Of a stretch of 64,000 nt of DNA, positions 31,651 to 44,922 are shown one piece after another (the stretch's first letter is position 1; each line of letters starts with the position of its first letter). The notes beneath the pieces are model-generated. The model was not told the origin of the DNA, ran no database searches, and saw only the letters and a list, made by a program, of their open reading frames with translations. The stretch spans positions 57,376-121,375 of the forward strand of contig CAJTTN010000006.1 of the NCBI GenBank assembly GCA_910579215.1, in the 5' to 3' direction. The position numbers and the translations under genes were made by a program. The stretch comes from an uncultured Anaeroplasmataceae bacterium (GTDB taxonomy: Bacteria > Bacillota_I > Bacilli_A > Acholeplasmatales > Anaeroplasmataceae).

Positions 31651-32028
31651 ATGCTAGAATTTTTCGAATATGATGATTCTAACGGTTATGCAAGTGTTTA
31701 TGATAGTCATATTACCCTTAATAAAACACTTCTAAAATATCTTAAGGATGCATATCGTGTTAGAGTAGCAGTAGATAAGGTTAAGGATAATATTCATATT
31801 TATGTGATCAATAAGGATTATGCATTAAGTGGTGAATTAAAGGAATCCTCTTTATTACCTGTTTCTATTTCTAAATCCTATGCAAGAATCTGTTCTAGAC
31901 CATTAATAGAGTATATTTCTAATGTTTTTGGCCTAACGATTGCTAAAAAAGAATTTAAAAGATTTAAGGCGTGTTATGATGATGTAAAACAGGTTATACT
32001 AATAGATATGAAAGGAGAGGTATCCTAA
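31651..32028 (+). CDS. Hypothetical cytoplasmic protein (125 aa)
   Basis: RBS aaggaggt upstream. The stop overlaps the NfeD start (taATG). No TM segment and no family recognised. Confidence 0.55.
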   Translation: MLEFFEYDDSNGYASVYDSHITLNKTLLKYLKDAYRVRVAVDKVKDNIHIYVINKDYALSGELKESSLLPVSISKSYARICSRPLIEYISNVFGLTIAKKEFKRFKACYDDVKQVILIDMKGEVS

Positions 32029-32471
32029 TGGAAGCTTATATGGTTTGGATTTGGCTGAGTGCCTTTATTATCACTCTTGTTATAGAATCCATAACACAGG
32101 ATTTAGTAGCAGTGTGGTTTTCTCTAGGTTCAATTATTGCTTTAATATTATCAGCCTTTCCAGCAATTGATTGGTATATTGAGGTCGTTGTTTTTGCTGT
32201 GGTTTCTTTCTTGTCTTTAGGCTTGACTAGACCATTTGCTAAAAAATTATTATTTAATGCTACTAGATATACTAATGTTGATGAATTTGTAGGGAAAAGG
32301 GTAAAGGTTATTTCTGACATTTCAAAGTATGAGAATGGAGAAGTAAAAATTCATGATATTATTTATAATGCAAGTCTAATGGAGGAAGAGACGGAAACCA
32401 TTCATAAGGATGAAATTGTAGAAATTGTGACCTTGAAGGGGAACAAAGTAGTAGTAAGAAAAATTCAGTAA
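32028..32471 (+). CDS. NfeD family membrane protein
   Basis: Three N-terminal TM helices plus a C-terminal OB-fold-like segment (GKRVKVISDI...GEVKIHDIIYNA...IVEIVTLKGNKVVVRK), located directly upstream of an SPFH gene. Confidence 0.8.
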   Translation: MEAYMVWIWLSAFIITLVIESITQDLVAVWFSLGSIIALILSAFPAIDWYIEVVVFAVVSFLSLGLTRPFAKKLLFNATRYTNVDEFVGKRVKVISDISKYENGEVKIHDIIYNASLMEEETETIHKDEIVEIVTLKGNKVVVRKIQ

Positions 32472-32492
32472 AGGAAAGGAATAGTTTAATAT

Positions 32493-33434
32493 ATGAATAC
32501 AGGAATTATTGTTGCTATTGTATGTAGTGTAATTTTAGTTGTTATTGTTATTTTATTGATTACGAGAATAAAAATTGTTCGTCAAACACAGAAGTTGATT
32601 GTTGAGCGTTTAGGGGCCTATCACGCTACGTGGTCTGTAGGATTTCATTTCTTGGTACCATTTATTGATCGTGTAGCTCAGGTAGTATCTATGAAGGAGC
32701 AGGTTAACGATTTTGATCCACAGCCTGTGATTACAAAAGATAATGTTACTATGCAAATTGATACCGTGGTTTTCTTTCAGGTTACAGATCCAAAGCTATA
32801 TTCCTATGGTGTAGAAAATCCAATTGCCGCTTTAGAAAACTTATCTTCTACAACTTTACGTAATATTATTGGTGAATTAGATTTGGATGAAACTTTAACT
32901 TCACGAGATATTATAAATACAAAGATGAGATCTATTCTAGATGAAGCAACAGATCCTTGGGGTATTAAGGTTAATCGTGTAGAGGTTAAAAATATTTTAC
33001 CACCAAAGGATATTCGAGATGCTATGGAGCGTCAAATGCGTGCTGAGCGTGAACGTCGTGAGAAAATTTTGCTTGCAGAAGGTGAAAAAAGAAGTCAAAT
33101 ACTTCAAGCAGAGGGAGAAAAAGAATCTCAAATCTTAAGAGCAGAGGCAGAAAAGGAAGCCACAATTAAAAAGGCAGAAGCAGAGGCAGCTGCAATTCTT
33201 AAGGTAAGAACAGCAGAGGCTGAAGGTGTTAGACTTACTCGTCAGGCACAAGCAGAAGGATATAGAATGCTAGTAGATGCAGGCTTAACAAAAGAGGTTT
33301 TAGCAATTAAATCCTTTGAAGCTCTAGAGAAGGTTGCTGATGGGCAGTCTACTAAACTAATCATTCCATCTGATATGCAAAATTTAGCTGCTACTATTGC
33401 AAGTTTAGCAGAGGTTGTTAAGGATAAGAAATAA
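32493..33434 (+). CDS. SPFH/band-7 protein, stomatin (QmcA/slipin)-like
   Basis: N-terminal TM helix, SPFH core (IVERLGAYH..., ITKDNVTMQIDTVVFFQVTDP, RNIIGELDLDETLTSRD, WGIKVNRVEVKNI), and an EA-rich coiled-coil tail. Confidence 0.9.
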   Translation: MNTGIIVAIVCSVILVVIVILLITRIKIVRQTQKLIVERLGAYHATWSVGFHFLVPFIDRVAQVVSMKEQVNDFDPQPVITKDNVTMQIDTVVFFQVTDPKLYSYGVENPIAALENLSSTTLRNIIGELDLDETLTSRDIINTKMRSILDEATDPWGIKVNRVEVKNILPPKDIRDAMERQMRAERERREKILLAEGEKRSQILQAEGEKESQILRAEAEKEATIKKAEAEAAAILKVRTAEAEGVRLTRQAQAEGYRMLVDAGLTKEVLAIKSFEALEKVADGQSTKLIIPSDMQNLAATIASLAEVVKDKK

Positions 33435-33445
33435 GAAATCAAATG

Positions 33446-33476
33446 ATGCCAAGTGTAAAACCTGGCATTTTTTTGT
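33446..33476 (+). terminator. Rho-independent terminator
   Basis: Stem atgcca / tggcat with an 11-nt loop, followed by tttttttg. Confidence 0.6.
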
Positions 33477-33569
33477 CTTTAAAAACTTGTATTATTTATT
33501 TTTGACAAAAAATGGTAAAATTTACCAATTTATGATATAATGAATAACATAAATCATAAGAGGTCAAAA

Positions 33570-34892
33570 ATGAAAAAGAAATATTTAGAACTAGATGTCT
33601 ATGAAAGCCTAATGAATAGATTAAAATTTATATTTGAAGAATTTGAAAATATTTTTGTTTCTTTTTCTGGTGGAAAGGATAGCGGACTTTTATTAAATTT
33701 AGTTTTAGATTATAAAAGAAAGTATTATCCAGAACGTGTAATAGGTGTTTTTCATCAGGATTTTGAAGCACAATATGACTATACAACTAAATATGTAGAA
33801 AGTACCTTTGAGCGAATAAAAAATGAGGCAGAGCTCTATTGGGTTTGTCTTCCAATGGCTACTAGAACGGCGCTAAGTAGCTATGAAATGTATTGGTATC
33901 CTTGGGATGATAGGCTTCAAGACATTTGGGTAAGACCTCTACCTCAGCATGAATATGTTATTTCATTAGAAAACAATCCTATTACGACTTATAAATATAA
34001 AATGCATCAAGAGGATTTGGCAAAGCAATTTGGAAGATGGTACCGCGCAGTGCATGGAGAAACGTCTACAATATGCTTATTAGGAATTCGTGCTGATGAA
34101 TCCCTACATCGTTACAGTGGATTTTTAAATAAAAAAAAGGGATATAAGCATAAATGCTATATCACACAGCAATTTAAAAATGTATGGTGTGCCTCTCCTT
34201 TATATGATTGGAGTGTTCAGGATGTTTGGCATGCAATAGCGATGCTAGGATATGATTATAATCCTTTGTATGATATTTTTTATCAGGTTGGACTTAAGCC
34301 CTCTATGATGAGAGTTGCCTCTCCATTTAATGATTATGCAAAGGACAGCCTGAATTATTATAGAGTTATTGAACCTGAGACCTGGACAAAGCTTTTAGGT
34401 CGTGTACAGGGTGTTAATTTTGCAGGTATTTATGGTAGAACTAAGGCCTTAGGGTATAGGAGTGTTACCTTACCTGAAGGACATACTTGGGAATCCTATA
34501 CAAAGTTTTTACTTGCCACCTTACCAACAAGAATTAGAAATGGATATTTGAAAAAATTTAAAACCTCTATCGATTTTTGGCATAATGTTGGTGGAGGCTT
34601 AGAAGAATCCACCATTCAAGAATTAGAGGAAAAAGGATATAATATTCAAAGAAATGGTGTTTCAAACTATACTATATTTAAAAATACTAGAATAATTTTT
34701 ATAGGTAAAATACCTGACCATACCGATGACATCAAATCCTCTCGTGATATACCTTCGTGGAAAAGAATGTGCTATTGTATTTTGAAAAATGATCATTTAT
34801 GTAGAAGTATGGGATTTGGTTTGACTAGAGATCAACAAAGAAATTTAGATGTTATAAAGCAAAAATATCTTGCTTTGGAGGAAATAGAATGA
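33570..34892 (+). CDS. ibrA: IbrA-like protein: PAPS-reductase/PP-loop ATP pyrophosphatase domain plus DUF3440-like C-terminal domain
   Basis: PP-loop VSFSGGKDSGLLL near the N-terminus. GIRADES corresponds to the PAPS-reductase/DndC-type block. A long C-terminal extension follows. The start was taken at the ATG with RBS aagagg; the track start at 33540 overlaps a TATAAT. Confidence 0.75.
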   Translation: MKKKYLELDVYESLMNRLKFIFEEFENIFVSFSGGKDSGLLLNLVLDYKRKYYPERVIGVFHQDFEAQYDYTTKYVESTFERIKNEAELYWVCLPMATRTALSSYEMYWYPWDDRLQDIWVRPLPQHEYVISLENNPITTYKYKMHQEDLAKQFGRWYRAVHGETSTICLLGIRADESLHRYSGFLNKKKGYKHKCYITQQFKNVWCASPLYDWSVQDVWHAIAMLGYDYNPLYDIFYQVGLKPSMMRVASPFNDYAKDSLNYYRVIEPETWTKLLGRVQGVNFAGIYGRTKALGYRSVTLPEGHTWESYTKFLLATLPTRIRNGYLKKFKTSIDFWHNVGGGLEESTIQELEEKGYNIQRNGVSNYTIFKNTRIIFIGKIPDHTDDIKSSRDIPSWKRMCYCILKNDHLCRSMGFGLTRDQQRNLDVIKQKYLALEEIE

Positions 34893-35455
34893 GTTCAAAA
34901 AGTCCAGTTTATAAAATTAAGGCAGTTCCAATAGAGAAAATTAATCCTAATTCCTATAATCCTAATTCTGTGGCACCACCAGAAATGAGATTACTTTATG
35001 ATAGTATCAAAGAGGATGGGTATACGATGCCTATCGTTTGTTACTATAATCCAGAGGATGATACATATATCATAGTCGATGGATTTCATAGATATAGAGT
35101 TATGCTTGATTATAAGGATATTTATGAGCGAGAGGGAGGCTGTCTTCCTGTAACTGTAATAGATAAGCCCTTAGATAAACGTATGGCTAGTACAATTCGA
35201 CATAATCGTGCAAGAGGCTCTCATAATGTTGATTTGATGAGTAATATAGTTAGTGAATTGCATGAATTGGGAAGATCTGATGCTTGGATATGTAAGCATT
35301 TAGGTATGCAAAAAGATGAGGTTTTAAGACTAAAACAAATTACAGGATTAGCATCTTTATTTAAGGATATAGACTTTAGTAAGGGCTGGATTCCAGAAGA
35401 TGATTTTGAAACGGAATTTAAGCAATTGGAAGCAGCGTATGTAAATAGAAAATAG
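34889..35455 (+). CDS. ibrB: IbrB-like ParB/sulfiredoxin-fold protein
   Basis: ParB N-terminal domain motifs: IEKINPNSYNPN, IVDGFHRYRV (DGxHR) and IRHNRARGSH. ATGA overlap with the upstream gene. Confidence 0.75.
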   Translation: MSSKSPVYKIKAVPIEKINPNSYNPNSVAPPEMRLLYDSIKEDGYTMPIVCYYNPEDDTYIIVDGFHRYRVMLDYKDIYEREGGCLPVTVIDKPLDKRMASTIRHNRARGSHNVDLMSNIVSELHELGRSDAWICKHLGMQKDEVLRLKQITGLASLFKDIDFSKGWIPEDDFETEFKQLEAAYVNRK

Positions 35456-35578
35456 TTTATTTCTTAAATTAAATTTTAATAAGGTTATCTATAGTGAACC
35501 CAATTATTTTTATCTTAAGGAATTAAGAGAAGATAATTGTGATTTTATAATGTAGGGAACAATAGAAAATAAAGCTAA

Positions 35579-35607
35579 TAAAAACAAAAAAAGCCAATCA
35601 TCTGGCT
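35579..35607 (-). terminator. Rho-independent terminator of the tRNA pair
   Basis: Minus strand: stem AGCCA / TGGCT with a 6-nt loop, followed by TTTTTTTGTTTTT. Confidence 0.65.
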
Positions 35608-35618
35608 ATTATTAACTA

Positions 35619-35695
35619 TGGCGCACCCTAGAGGATTCGAACCCCTAACCTTTTGATCCGTAGTCAAACGATCTATCCAATTGATCTAAGGGTGC
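35619..35695 (-). tRNA. tRNA-Arg (anticodon ACG), CCA encoded
   Basis: The reverse complement folds by hand as a cloverleaf. Acceptor GCACCCT/AGGGTGC, D stem GATC/GATC, anticodon stem TTTGA/TCAAA with loop CTACGGA, T arm AGGGG-TTCGAAT-CCTCT, then G-CCA. Confidence 0.92.
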
Positions 35696-35709: not shown

Positions 35710-35785
35710 TGGCGGTTCGGACGGGACTTGAACCCGCGATCTCCAGTGTGACAGACTAGCATGTTAACCACTACACCACCGAACC
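35710..35785 (-). tRNA. tRNA-Asp (anticodon GTC), CCA encoded
   Basis: The reverse complement is GGTTCGGTGGTGTAGTGGTTAACATGCTAGTCTGTCACACTGGAGATCGCGGGTTCAAGTCCCGTCCGAACCGCCA. Anticodon stem CTAGT/ACTGG with loop CTGTCAC, and T arm GCGGG-TTCAAGT-CCCGT. Confidence 0.92.
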
Positions 35786-37801: not shown

Positions 37802-37866
37802 ATTGTATAATAGATTTAGCATTATAATTATATATAATTTTAAAAAAGGAAAAGAGGTTGATTTTT

Positions 37867-39381
37867 ATGGAATTCCCAATACTTATTACAATTATAGTAG
37901 TGGCAGTAGTAATTTTTTTAGTGATTCTTTTCGCTTTATCTTATGTTAAGGCAGGTCCTGATACGGCAATTATGGTAACAGGAGCAGGAAAAAAGAAAAT
38001 TTTAATTGGTAAGGCGGGCTTTAGAATACCCTTTTTTCAAAGAACCGATTCCCTTTCTTTAAAAGCCTTTCAAGTAGATATTAAAACAGAGGAAGCCATT
38101 CCAACTAAGGAATTTATAAACATTAATGTAGATGGTGTAGCTAATTTAAAAATATCTTCTGATACGGAGATGCTAGAAAAGGCATTTGAATCTATTTTAA
38201 ATATGGCTGAATCTGAGCTTCAAAATCAGCTCCAGCAGGTATTGCAGGGAAACATGCGTGAAATTGTTGGTACAGTTGAAATTAAAGAGCTAGTAAGAGA
38301 TCGTCAAGGAGTTGCAAATAAGGTTAAGGAAAATGTTGTACCTGATATGGCTAAGCTTGGAATAGAGGTTGTAAACTTCAATATACAGTCCTTTTCAGAT
38401 GATAATAAGGTTATTGAAAATCTAGGTATAGATAATATTAGTCAAATTTCTAAGGATGCCTCAATAGCTAGAGCGAATGCTGAGCGAGATGTAGCTATTG
38501 CCTCAAGTGCAGCAAGTGAAGCAGCTAATAAAGCTAAAGTAGAATCTCAAATGAAGATTGTGCAGCAAAATACAGATTATGAGCTTCAGGCTGCAGCATT
38601 GAAGCAAAAATCAGATACGGCAAAGGCTGTTGCAGATGCTGCCTATGATATTGAAAAGCAGAAGCGTTTAGAACAGATTAATGTTGCCGAGGTGAACGCA
38701 AATATTGCTAAACGCGAAAGAGAAGTTGAGCTTGGAAATCGTGAAGTTGAATTAAAGGAAAAGAAGCTTCAGGCTGAGGTAAATAAGGTAGCAGATTCAA
38801 AAAAATATGCTGACCAAATGGCTGCAGAAGCGGATTTATTCACGCGTCAAAAGGCTGCAGAAGCAAAGAAATATGAATTAGAACAAGAAGCAGAAATGCA
38901 AAAGATAAAAGCAGAAGCAGATAAAATTGCAAGACAAAAATCAGCAGAGGCTTTTAAGATTCAAGCAGATTTAGAGGCTGCAGCGCAAATTGCGAGAGCA
39001 AACGCAGCTAAAGAAGCAGCTTTAGCTGAAGCCCAGGGAATAGAGGCTAAGGGTAAAGCAGAAGCGGATGCAATACGTGCTAAAGCAGAGGCTATGAAAC
39101 AATATGGAGAAGCTGCAACCTTACAGTTAATTTTAGATTCAGGTGTACTTCCTGAAATGGTTAAGGCTTATGCAGAACCAGTGGCTAGTGCAATGAGTAA
39201 GATAGATAGTATTACTATGTATGGAGAAGGAAATACAGCTAAGCTTACGGAGGAGATATCTAAAAATGGAACCCAAATTTTTGCAGGACTTGAAAAGGCA
39301 ACAGGACTAGATATAAAATCCTTACTTGCAGGTTTTTTGGGTGGTAAGCTGATAGAAAAAAGCAAATCTGACAAAGAATAA
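37867..39381 (+). CDS. floT: Flotillin (SPFH domain, FloT/YuaG-like)
   Basis: N-terminal membrane hairpin, SPFH core, and a ~200 aa Ala/Glu/Lys-rich flotillin coiled-coil (AEAKKYELEQEAEMQKIKAEADKIARQKSAEA...). About 505 aa. The start was taken at the ATG behind RBS aaagagg rather than the TTG at 37858. Confidence 0.88.
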   Translation: MEFPILITIIVVAVVIFLVILFALSYVKAGPDTAIMVTGAGKKKILIGKAGFRIPFFQRTDSLSLKAFQVDIKTEEAIPTKEFININVDGVANLKISSDTEMLEKAFESILNMAESELQNQLQQVLQGNMREIVGTVEIKELVRDRQGVANKVKENVVPDMAKLGIEVVNFNIQSFSDDNKVIENLGIDNISQISKDASIARANAERDVAIASSAASEAANKAKVESQMKIVQQNTDYELQAAALKQKSDTAKAVADAAYDIEKQKRLEQINVAEVNANIAKREREVELGNREVELKEKKLQAEVNKVADSKKYADQMAAEADLFTRQKAAEAKKYELEQEAEMQKIKAEADKIARQKSAEAFKIQADLEAAAQIARANAAKEAALAEAQGIEAKGKAEADAIRAKAEAMKQYGEAATLQLILDSGVLPEMVKAYAEPVASAMSKIDSITMYGEGNTAKLTEEISKNGTQIFAGLEKATGLDIKSLLAGFLGGKLIEKSKSDKE

Positions 39382-44572: not shown

Positions 44573-44663
44573 AAACGTTCCGCCTTTCTATAAGATATTA
44601 TAACGCAATCCTTTAAAATTTTCACTAAATCATGGTAAATTTAACCAAAAAATAAGAAAATTC

Positions 44664-44724: not shown

Positions 44725-44922
44725 ATGAAGGGTAAAGTTAAATGGTTTAATGCTGAAAAAGGCTACGGCTTCATTGTATCTGAAGAAGGCAAAGAAGTTT
44801 TTGTTCACTTTAGTTCAATCTGTGCTGATGGTTATAAAACATTAAATGAAGGCGAAGAAGTTACCTTTGACGTAGTTGAAGGTGAAAAGGGTCAGTTAGC
44901 AAAGGAAGTTTATAAAGCTTAG
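44725..44922 (+). CDS. Cold-shock protein (CspA family)
   Basis: [15 protein letters not shown] (RNP1) and VFVHFS (RNP2). 65 aa. Confidence 0.97.

Follow-up and report, generated by a model that had tools for sequence, protein, structure and literature searches.

We examined two adjacent genes, A and B, in a 64,000-nucleotide (64-kb) stretch of contig CAJTTN010000006.1 from an uncultured Anaeroplasmataceae bacterium; this whole stretch is referred to as the window. Judged by its sequence, the two-gene cassette is a stand-alone chromosomal member of the IbrA/IbrB family, which is the YbdN/YbdM family of E. coli. Our favored reading, to which we assign a probability of about 0.42, is that the two products would form an autoregulated, DNA-directed enzyme pair that uses ATP adenylylation. 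In addition, this analysis identifies a promoter dyad that the cassette carries as its own cis element, separates the stand-alone chromosomal clade from helicase-linked phage modules, and provides evidence for vertical stability plus cross-class transfer. An earlier note on this DNA had pointed out the cassette, and its coordinates, the ATGA overlap between the genes and the four protein motifs that it quoted were all found where it had placed them. The features of the cassette are as follows, with amino acid (aa) positions given where they apply.

33513–33527, either strand: operator-like palindrome TGGTAAAATTTACCA, perfect, with 7-nt arms TGGTAAA and TTTACCA around a central A.
33533–33541, plus strand: extended −10 element TGATATAAT of the form TGnTATAAT, read from the sequence.
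33558–33563, plus strand: ribosome-binding site AAGAGG of gene A, 6 nt ahead of the ATG at 33570, read from the sequence.
33570–34892, plus strand: gene A (IbrA/YbdN-like), 440 aa, a PP-loop ATP pyrophosphatase of the 3′-phosphoadenosine 5′-phosphosulfate (PAPS) reductase fold plus DUF3440.
33660–33686, plus strand: PP-loop SFSGGKDSG (A aa 31–39), the motif that binds the alpha and beta phosphates of ATP, intact.
34083–34103, plus strand: GIRADES block (A aa 172–178) of the PAPS-reductase fold; G-R--ES--R is invariant in the family alignment.
34290–34841, plus strand: DUF3440 domain (A aa 241–424), from Pfam, alignment and AlphaFold2 (AF2) secondary structure.
34770–34772, plus strand: Cys401 of A, in PSW(K/R)R(M/I)C, the sole cysteine conserved across the family.
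34877–34881, plus strand: ribosome-binding site GGAGG of gene B, within the 3′ end of gene A and 7 nt upstream of the B ATG, read from the sequence.
34889–35455, plus strand: gene B (IbrB/YbdM-like), 188 aa, a mini-ParB; its ATG overlaps the TGA stop codon of A as ATGA (34889–34892).
35078–35101, plus strand: DGFHRYRV (B aa 64–71), which aligns with the GERRxRA arginine box (box II) of ParB/Noc.
35201–35224, plus strand: HNRARGSH (B aa 105–112), a family-specific basic motif in the invariant block R-A-T-RHNRARG-H.
35273–35353, plus strand: putative helix-turn-helix (HTH), RSDAWICKHLGMQKDEVLRLKQITGLA (B aa 129–155), with GM--DE-LRLKQ--GL invariant.

Profile and sequence searches supported the earlier assignment of the pair to the IbrA/IbrB family, that is, a PP-loop PAPS-reductase-like enzyme with DUF3440 together with a ParB-fold partner. 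Protein A gave significant matches to Pfam PAPS_reduct (PF01507; E 1.5e-13, 51.6 bits, cut-off 22.5) and, in its C-terminal part, to DUF3440 (PF11922; E 2.3e-84, 282 bits, cut-off 25), and it matched phrog_2302 with an E value of 1.7e-97. The third profile that the earlier note had proposed matched only weakly, as B scored 23.8 bits against Pfam ParB_N (E 4.8e-5), under the gathering cut-off of 26.3, though phrog_2159 (E 3.8e-82) and E. coli YbdM (48% identity over 164 aa, E 2e-51) support the assignment of B. Protein A is 30% identical to E. coli K-12 YbdN (E 3e-62), and a coliphage record annotates a homologous pair as IbrA/IbrB. As in the window, YbdN/YbdM of E. coli and the prophage IbrA/IbrB combine an A protein of PAPS_reduct plus DUF3440, bearing FSGGKDS, G-R-ES-R, YDW and one cysteine, with a mini-ParB B protein that bears VDG-HR, RHNRARG-H and GM-DE-LRLKQ; the A-then-B order and overlapping genes are likewise found in E. 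coli K-12 and the coliphage. Alignment showed that the blocks kept from Firmicutes to E. coli are FSGGKDS, D-EAQ, G-R-ES--R, P-YDW---D-W and one cysteine in A, and N-YNPN--AP-E, VDG-HR, R-A-T-RHNRARG-H and GM--DE-LRLKQ--GL in B.

There are also differences from the E. coli pair. Window A has an insert of about 55 aa (aa 340–395) that YbdN and IbrA lack, whereas YbdM and IbrB have an N-terminal extension of about 40 aa that is missing from window B. Moreover, the LysR-type regulator CitR is encoded adjacent to E. coli ybdNM, whereas no such regulator adjoins the window pair, which has its own TGG[T/A]A dyad instead. In the original E. coli work the IbrA/IbrB pair reportedly activates prophage eib gene expression, to our knowledge the only genetic phenotype of the family, and in public records both proteins carry the annotation 'co-activator of prophage gene expression'. 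The Eib activation phenotype is not transferable to the organism of the window.

A first AF2 model of A, built from a shallow alignment (72–93% identity), was poor, with a predicted local distance difference test (pLDDT) value of 68; a second model with the phage-type clade added to the alignment reached 84.7. Structural neighbors of A in the PDB were the PAPS domain of FAD synthase (16.2), APS reductase (15.0), CysD (14.6), PAPS reductases (about 14), TilS (12.5), TtuA (11.9) and NcsA (11.2). In a sequence search of the PDB, A had zero matches, and structure searches of the PDB returned no recognizable neighbor for the DUF3440 domain, which is mostly helical with a small beta insert at aa 340–395 according to AF2 secondary structure and the alignment. 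In PP-loop enzymes of this branch, such as CysD and flavin mononucleotide (FMN) adenylyltransferase, an oxyanion attacks the alpha-phosphate of ATP and pyrophosphate (PPi) is freed. The PP-loop FSGGKDS is invariant in the alignment of window A, E. coli YbdN, coliphage IbrA and Lactobacillus phage CR28. Cys401 is invariant in the same four proteins and in the gut clade, and is at least 90% conserved in a 73-sequence alignment; it may act in catalysis or as a persulfide carrier. A Pfam scan of longer family members for additional domains yielded no informative fusion; the apparently chimeric N-termini (ABC_tran, PGA_cap) of two of them were set aside as probable gene-call artefacts.

Protein B consists of a ParB/Srx N-domain followed by an HTH-like C-terminal part, and has no C-terminal dimerization domain. 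In a sequence search of the PDB, aa 9–73 of B gave weak profile matches to Noc (7ol9) and Spo0J (1vz0), and in the HMMER alignments to these two structures IVDGFHRYR of B falls on LIAGERRWR. Weak PDB matches were also obtained to SerK and Srx. The N-domain of B matched phrog_498, the N-terminus of phage DNA methyltransferases, at 4e-13. The segment at aa 129–155 may resemble the HTH of ParB, although no model matched it. Two predicted proteins of 323 aa (P0121) and 237 aa (P0122) contain a full or partial tandem duplication of IbrB, and P0121 has a precomputed match to DUF262 (PF03235) as well; these are either real duplications or assembly artefacts.

The earlier note had compared the pair with DndC, SspD and BrxP, and these parallels are real at the domain level. 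Dnd systems (DndB/DndC), like the window pair, couple a PP-loop PAPS-reductase-like ATP pyrophosphatase with a ParB-fold protein that has a DGxHR-type motif. However, A is not a DndC equivalog, as it scored 27.4 bits against the NCBIfam model TIGR03183 (cut-off 290.4), and PADLOC DndC models align to only about 80–100 residues of it. B had no DndB or DGQHR-family match in NCBIfam at E ≤ 0.01. Genes for DndA/IscS, DndD and DndE are absent beside the window pair, and none of them recurs across about 120 loci. In a further difference from DndC, an Fe-S cluster in A is unlikely because only one cysteine is conserved. SspB/SspD and BrxP of BREX type 4 resemble the window pair in that a PAPS-reductase-domain enzyme acts with, or is fused to, a DNA-handling partner (PMC12914056). 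Nevertheless, BrxP models in PADLOC matched A only partially (22.5 bits), DUF3440 stands where these systems have DUF4007, and the surroundings of the window pair contain no SspA, SspC, BrxC, BrxZ or BrxL and no adjacent ATPase gene.

In DpdA/DpdB and in ParB-methyltransferase fusions a ParB-fold NTPase or targeting domain serves a DNA-modifying enzyme (PMC12839542), an arrangement like that of the window, but there the catalytic partner is a transglycosylase or methyltransferase whereas the window has a PP-loop enzyme. ParB/Spo0J and Noc share with B the fold of the N-domain and an arginine box in the equivalent position. Unlike B, which has GFHR, these proteins have GERR; B is also only 188 aa, lacks the dimerization domain and has no adjacent parA. 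Its NCBIfam scores were 23.8 bits against TIGR00180 (cut-off 58.45) and 26.1 bits against Noc (cut-off 315). A scored far below the cut-off of the CysH model and lacks the C-terminal catalytic ECGLH cysteine of assimilatory CysH. The window pair has each testable defining feature of IbrA/IbrB and lacks the tested features of Dnd, Ssp/BREX-4, CysH and partition ParB proteins. Membership in a known defence system was rejected on the basis of PADLOC and NCBIfam matches that were far below the cut-offs. The Aravind-group reappraisal of Dnd contains no mention of the IbrA/IbrB family. In agreement with the earlier note, which described a family without established biochemistry, we found no paper in the searchable literature on the biochemistry, substrate or product of IbrA/IbrB (DUF3440, ybdN/ybdM).

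The two genes are obligately paired, as B lies directly 3′ of A in 98 of 100 loci. In the window the pair is self-contained and translationally coupled, as had been proposed. One metagenome-assembled genome (MAG) of Blautia has an intact A followed, right after its stop codon, by only the last ~20 codons of B (L060, 9320–9400), which is either a natural internal deletion or an assembly collapse. Relatives of A form more than 5,800 clusters at 90% identity in the protein database; the top 120 share 72–100% identity and include sequences from Anaeroplasmataceae, Lachnospiraceae and Hungatella, and B gave the same picture at 73–88% identity. At 50% clustering the entire gut clade is one cluster. 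In a scan of one genome per species, close relatives were present in at least 575 species representatives, including Anaeroplasmataceae, other Bacilli, Erysipelotrichaceae, Lachnospiraceae, Oscillospiraceae and Ruminococcaceae. The family also occurs in more than 700 plasmid records, many of them conjugative, and in 224 phage records. Two MAGs labelled as Bacteroidota, 'Prevotella sp.' (L089, a 503-kb contig) and 'Alistipes sp.' (L094), contain Firmicute-type cassettes at 72–73% identity, and L089 is nearly identical to L080, a MAG that one and the same study labelled 'Anaeroplasma bactoclasticum'; mis-binning or mislabelling thus seems a likelier origin than transfer.

Outside the window's syntenic group the pair was found in other chromosomal contexts: between rpmF and two genes followed by plsX-acpP-rnc-smc; in the order mutS-mutL-miaA-aroK-aroQ-(surface protein)-A-B-(MATE transporter)-efp; and between ADH and MTHFR. 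All of these surroundings are of a housekeeping type, and no mobile-element or defence gene was found in the rpmF/plsX, mutL/miaA or MTHFR contexts. All-against-all clustering of open reading frames (ORFs) from the ~120 loci revealed no third conserved gene in chromosomal contexts; a helicase and an uncharacterized protein recurred, in viral loci only.

The ORF listed for gene A spans 33540–34892. We assigned the start to the ATG at 33570 because AAGAGG lies at 33558–33563, because homologues begin with MKKKYL, and because the ATG at 33540 is itself part of the −10 hexamer of a promoter that is the only plausible one for gene A. The −10 element TGATATAAT is kept as TG(A/C)TATAAT in related loci that have different upstream genes. 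A two-hexamer promoter scan misses this element, as there is no canonical −35 sequence 16–18 nt upstream. In the palindrome TGGTAAAATTTACCA, 5 nt separate two TGG[T/A]A half-sites, the left of which sits at the −35 position. The exact palindrome occurred once per locus, 57–64 nt upstream of A, in all 14 Anaeroplasmataceae-type loci, even where the genomic contexts are unrelated. Clostridia-type loci have another promoter, TTGTTGAATTT ... TGTGCTAAATT. In these loci the half-site again forms a dyad, which is located downstream of the −10 element and ahead of the ribosome-binding site, as in TTCCAAATATTGGAA, TGGAAAAAAATGGTA and TACCAAATTTTGGAA.

We counted dyads of TGG[T/A]A half-sites in all orientations within the 150 nt upstream of A in 71 genome loci. 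Dyads with a 5-nt spacer were present in 35 of the 71, and those with spacers of 3, 4, 6 or 7 nt in 0–3 loci at each length. The 36 sites with a 5-nt spacer compare with ~0.4 expected over the 71 loci (background 0.006 per 150 nt), an enrichment upstream of A of about 80-fold that is confined to this spacer, although these loci are related to each other and the count is not one of independent events. The orientation varied (18 direct, 10 inverted and 6 everted) while the spacing and the half-site were constant, which is the pattern expected from selection on a binding site. The dyad was not found in the phage modules described below, in E. coli or in the copy on a C. perfringens plasmid. A parS-like distribution was ruled out, as the 64-kb window contains two exact dyads and the only one other than that of the cassette is in coding sequence. 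A near-copy of the palindrome with one mismatch, TGGTAAATTTAACCA, lies at 44633–44647 between a minus-strand M20 peptidase gene and a cold-shock protein gene (44726–44920); it is at chance level, with at least two matches in 18 of 100 shuffles.

The position of the dyad over core promoter elements suggests repression. Because the element travels with the cassette and the HTH-like segment is equally conserved, B is the most economical candidate for the protein that binds it. B therefore probably binds the dyad and represses its own operon, judging from these sequence features.

The cassette was syntenic with the window in three Anaeroplasmataceae genomes (L010, L044 and L045), in the shared order Band_7, an optional short-chain dehydrogenase gene, A, B, an optional NERD-domain gene, tRNA-Arg, tRNA-Asp and M42 peptidase. 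Identity of A to the window was 93% in L010 and 83–84% in L044 and L045. In L045 the neighboring genes are 54–91% identical to those of the window, and A and B are 82% and 79% identical; the pair thus diverges like its neighbors, at an ordinary rate that indicates vertical inheritance in the genus-level group to which the window belongs. In comparison with Lachnospiraceae loci, A is 72–74% and B about 77% identical, whereas housekeeping orthologues present in both are 36–54% identical; overall, the cross-class identity of A and B is 72–80%. An ordinary rate within the family combined with excess cross-class similarity implies horizontal spread after the classes diverged. The same clade (69–73% identity) is also represented by an A-B pair on a mobilizable plasmid of Clostridium perfringens and by copies on Enterococcus faecalis plasmids of 240 kb, while the E. 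coli-type clade is found on hundreds of enterobacterial plasmids. The pair is therefore mobile over long evolutionary distances but stable and core-like over short ones.

These results divide the earlier view that the cassette is accessory. Synteny in three relatives at the rate of the neighbors, together with a report that the pair is core in Listeria monocytogenes (PMC7020466), stands against it, whereas the cross-class identity, the plasmids and the phage modules stand for it. The earlier note had named universal conservation in syntenic context as an outcome that would count against its proposal, and conservation of this kind was found in part, in three genomes.

The flanks of the cassette vary by gene-sized insertions or deletions while its own position is constant. 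A short-chain dehydrogenase gene lies between the SPFH gene and A in L010 (7106–7900) and L045 (7063–7830) and is absent from the window (33435–33569). Similarly, a NERD-domain gene lies between B and tRNA-Arg in L010 (10024–10698) and is absent from the window (35456–35618).

IMG/VR contained 20 related loci, and in 15 of these an SNF2-family helicase gene (SNF2-rel_dom plus Helicase_C, phrog_62) was directly upstream of A. In 11 of the 15 helicase-bearing loci the helicase gene was itself preceded by a gene for the uncharacterized protein, phrog_16123. The cultured Lactobacillus phage CR28 and Streptococcus phages likewise have the order helicase-A-B. Relative to the window, A of the phage modules is 38–62% and B 66–80% identical. 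The phage modules share the A-B pair with the window and form a sister clade in the A tree; unlike the window they carry the helicase and usually the phrog_16123 protein, and have no TGG[T/A]A dyad. No helicase homologue was found in the 64-kb window. In a neighbor-joining tree of A, the stand-alone chromosomal copies fall together in one clade, which has the helicase-linked viral group as its sister and splits into Bacilli-type and Clostridia-type sub-groups. Rather than a defence against phages, the window cassette looks like a phage module that was domesticated and has a control site of its own. The phrog_16123 protein (for example L024, 2833–3969) is mostly ~380 aa long, with a range of 223–454 aa, has no Pfam match and contains an N-terminal cysteine-rich motif (C-x-H ... 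CxxC).

In the autoregulated, DNA-directed enzyme pair that we favor, B would bind DNA through its HTH-like C-terminal part and repress the operon via the dyad that covers the −35 position. With its ParB/Srx N-domain (DGxHR and RHNRARG), B would bind a nucleoside triphosphate and hold A on DNA. A would then adenylylate an oxyanion with ATP and free PPi, as do its closest structural relatives CysD and FMN adenylyltransferase, and by the precedent of DndC and SspD its target would most plausibly be a DNA phosphate. The activated group would next be resolved, possibly via Cys401, which would leave the DNA with a covalent mark or change that protects it or alters expression. A mark that alters expression would fit the eib activation phenotype of the family. 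Since there is no restriction partner, the cassette would here be a resident, autoregulated module for DNA-directed modification or regulation, not an immune system.

Several findings argue for this reading. The helicase of the phage relatives is a DNA translocase and provides a link to DNA, the N-domain of B is kin to the N-termini of DNA methyltransferases, and the TGG[T/A]A half-site and the C-terminal part of B are both conserved across the clade. Known systems offer precedents. DndC and SspD are ATP pyrophosphatases required for DNA phosphorothioation, and the Dnd, Ssp and Dpd systems each contain a modification enzyme and a ParB-fold protein (PMC12839542, PMC12914056). DpdB is a ParB-like ATPase that aids DpdA in DNA modification (PMC12839542), and a fusion of a PAPS domain to Dam in Vibrio phages confers anti-Dnd activity (bioRxiv 10.1101/2021.05.05.442762).

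Other findings weigh against it. The searchable literature contains no substrate or product for any family member, and the nearest solved structures of A are those of enzymes with small-molecule substrates (FMN, sulfate and APS/PAPS). Neither the chromosomal clade nor the window has the helicase, and so the link to DNA is taken over from the phage relatives. Measured against the phage copies, conservation is higher in B (66–80%) than in A (38–62%), which is the opposite of what a variable specificity subunit would show. Phosphorothioate is an unlikely product, as only a single cysteine is conserved and as gut isolates without dndCD, sspBCD or brxPC had no phosphorothioate by liquid chromatography–mass spectrometry (PMC12914056). 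Finally, B is a candidate binder of the dyad, and a host regulator could fill that role instead.

A bolder and rather doubtful extension is that IbrA/IbrB is a minimal two-protein DNA-marking system with no restriction partner and a chemistry that has so far not been described, invented by phages and domesticated by bacteria. A phosphate or base of the DNA would be activated by adenylylation, with the lone conserved cysteine resolving the intermediate. Phages would have invented the pair together with the SNF2 helicase to mark or shield their own DNA, and hundreds of gut Firmicute species as well as E. coli (YbdNM) would then have domesticated it for an epigenetic or regulatory use under autoregulation, with the TGG[T/A]A dyad as the loading site of B.

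The pair is flanked by the following features, and the upstream terminator and the convergent tRNA genes that had been described were both present.

33446–33468, plus strand: terminator hairpin followed by a T-run ending at ~33476, which ends the upstream SPFH gene and insulates the cassette; found in the sequence, with the same stem returned by a terminator scan.
35619–35695, minus strand: tRNA-Arg(ACG), converging on the cassette.
35710–35785, minus strand: tRNA-Asp(GUC), converging on the cassette.

On the 5′ side of the cassette lie mnmG, rsmG, DUF951, rpsP, KH, NfeD and SPFH, and on the 3′ side the tRNA genes are followed by M42 peptidase, a pyridoxal-kinase-like gene, flotillin and BipA. 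The surroundings had been described as membrane-scaffold and peptidase genes; that description was incomplete, as the cassette sits in a housekeeping block from mnmG to BipA. Two separate SPFH/Band_7 loci lie within 7 kb of each other, one on each side of the cassette (32028–33434 and 37858–39381), one an NfeD-stomatin-type pair and the other a flotillin-like protein of 507 aa. A 125-aa protein encoded ahead of NfeD (31651–32028) is conserved and syntenic in relatives and has no Pfam match.

Among the alternatives to the DNA-directed enzyme pair, an unlikely one is that IbrA/IbrB is a transcriptional co-activator or anti-silencer that makes no covalent DNA modification. B would be a ParB/VirB/KorB-like NTP-dependent DNA-binding switch at a few promoters, including its own, and A would make, consume or sense a nucleotide ligand, or would modify B. 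The co-activator annotation in databases agrees with such a role, as do the specific operator-like dyad at the cassette promoter, the alignment of B with the NTP-binding box of ParB/Noc, and the extreme conservation of B, which fits contact with a fixed DNA site and a nucleotide. In E. coli, CitR represses ybdNM and the locus adjoins an H-NS-regulated gene (PMC9068703), and PP-loop enzymes can modify proteins, as in the Cap9-CdnD structure (9nto). However, the change from GERR to GFHR makes canonical CTP clamp chemistry doubtful, and the 64-kb window contains only one exact dyad outside coding sequence. A co-activator role also leaves unexplained the obligate coupling of a 440-aa ATP pyrophosphatase to B (98 of 100 loci) and the retention of the SNF2 helicase in the phage block.

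The defence module of the earlier note found support only at the domain level in PADLOC and NCBIfam, with no partner conserved in the ~120 loci, and we regard it as distinctly unlikely. Here the pair would mark DNA, by phosphorothioation or a similar change, for self-discrimination or restriction shielding. Apart from the domain-level similarity to DndC and BrxP, a role in defence or anti-defence is suggested by the abundance of the pair on phages and on plasmids, by the phage PAPS-domain fusion that defeats Dnd (bioRxiv 10.1101/2021.05.05.442762), by PAPS reductases in Aca-regulated anti-defence loci (PMC13551039), and by the NERD-domain gene that adjoins the pair in one close relative. In contrast, the pair is in no PADLOC system and B is without any PADLOC match; no restriction, nuclease, ATPase or cysteine-desulfurase partner is conserved; and the neighbors are housekeeping genes, not a defence island. 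The 72–80% cross-class conservation also contrasts with defence genes, which usually diversify, and the synteny in relatives at the neighbors' evolutionary rate, as well as the lack of phosphorothioate in isolates without dnd, ssp or brx genes (PMC12914056), count against it too.

It is improbable that the pair serves small-molecule metabolism, with A as a CysD/FMNAT-like adenylyltransferase and B as a ParB-fold kinase like sulfiredoxin, SerK or SbnI with a second role in regulating the operon. Such a function agrees with the top structural matches of A, which are FAD synthase, APS/PAPS reductases and CysD, but the matches of B to archaeal serine kinase SerK and sulfiredoxin, which would speak for it, are at chance level (PDB E 0.5–0.8; NCBIfam 2e-4) and weaker than those to ParB/Noc. 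An E. coli citR deletion provides another point in its favor, as derepression of ybdN/ybdM coincides with induction of the entire cys regulon (cysDNC, cysJI and cysAWU) by 2–3 units (PMC9068703). No metabolic gene or transporter is conserved beside the pair in any context, however, the phage versions sit in a helicase-containing block, and B is kin to DNA methyltransferase N-termini. The induction of the cys regulon on ybdNM derepression (E. coli K-12, L007, 4748–6570) may hint that the pair consumes a sulfur intermediate; this sulfur link is not discussed in PMC9068703.

A function of A in tRNA or RNA modification, as a PP-loop enzyme like TilS, TtuA or ThiI, would fit the tRNA-Arg/tRNA-Asp genes that start 164 nt downstream of the pair, but we consider it very improbable. 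The nearest fold neighbors of A belong to the PAPS-reductase branch and not to the tRNA branch, and we know of no ParB-fold partner for tRNA-modifying enzymes. Adjacency to tRNA genes is restricted to the syntenic group of the window, the pair being next to rpmF/plsX, mutL/miaA or MTHFR elsewhere; the association noted earlier is thus incidental, and a functional link to the tRNA genes was rejected because the adjacency is lineage-specific. In Listeria monocytogenes the pair, reported as core-genome, consists of lmo1309 (ParB) and lmo1310 (DUF3440), which TASmania lists, by association only, as a putative toxin-antitoxin pair (PMC7020466). We give almost no weight to a ParB-like antitoxin with a DUF3440 toxin, even though the window genes form a two-gene operon with probable autoregulation, as the gene order and sizes are atypical with the 440-aa enzyme first, both partners are extremely conserved, and the Blautia MAG keeps an intact A without B, which would be lethal were B the antitoxin.

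The locus itself would not surprise a specialist, as the family is already known and annotated. It is, however, widespread, with at least 575 species representatives in this clade, more than 700 plasmid and more than 200 phage records, E. coli K-12 and the Listeria core genome, and it is abundant in the human and animal gut microbiome. In the window the pair is compact, stands alone and is highly conserved, and it comes with a candidate operator and a defined promoter. Comparison indicates its source, the phage helicase-A-B modules, and excludes a Dnd/Ssp/BREX-type defence system and an assimilatory PAPS reductase. The narrowed identity leaves fewer experiments for assigning a function to this unsolved gene pair, for which the cassette provides a clean and abundant model.

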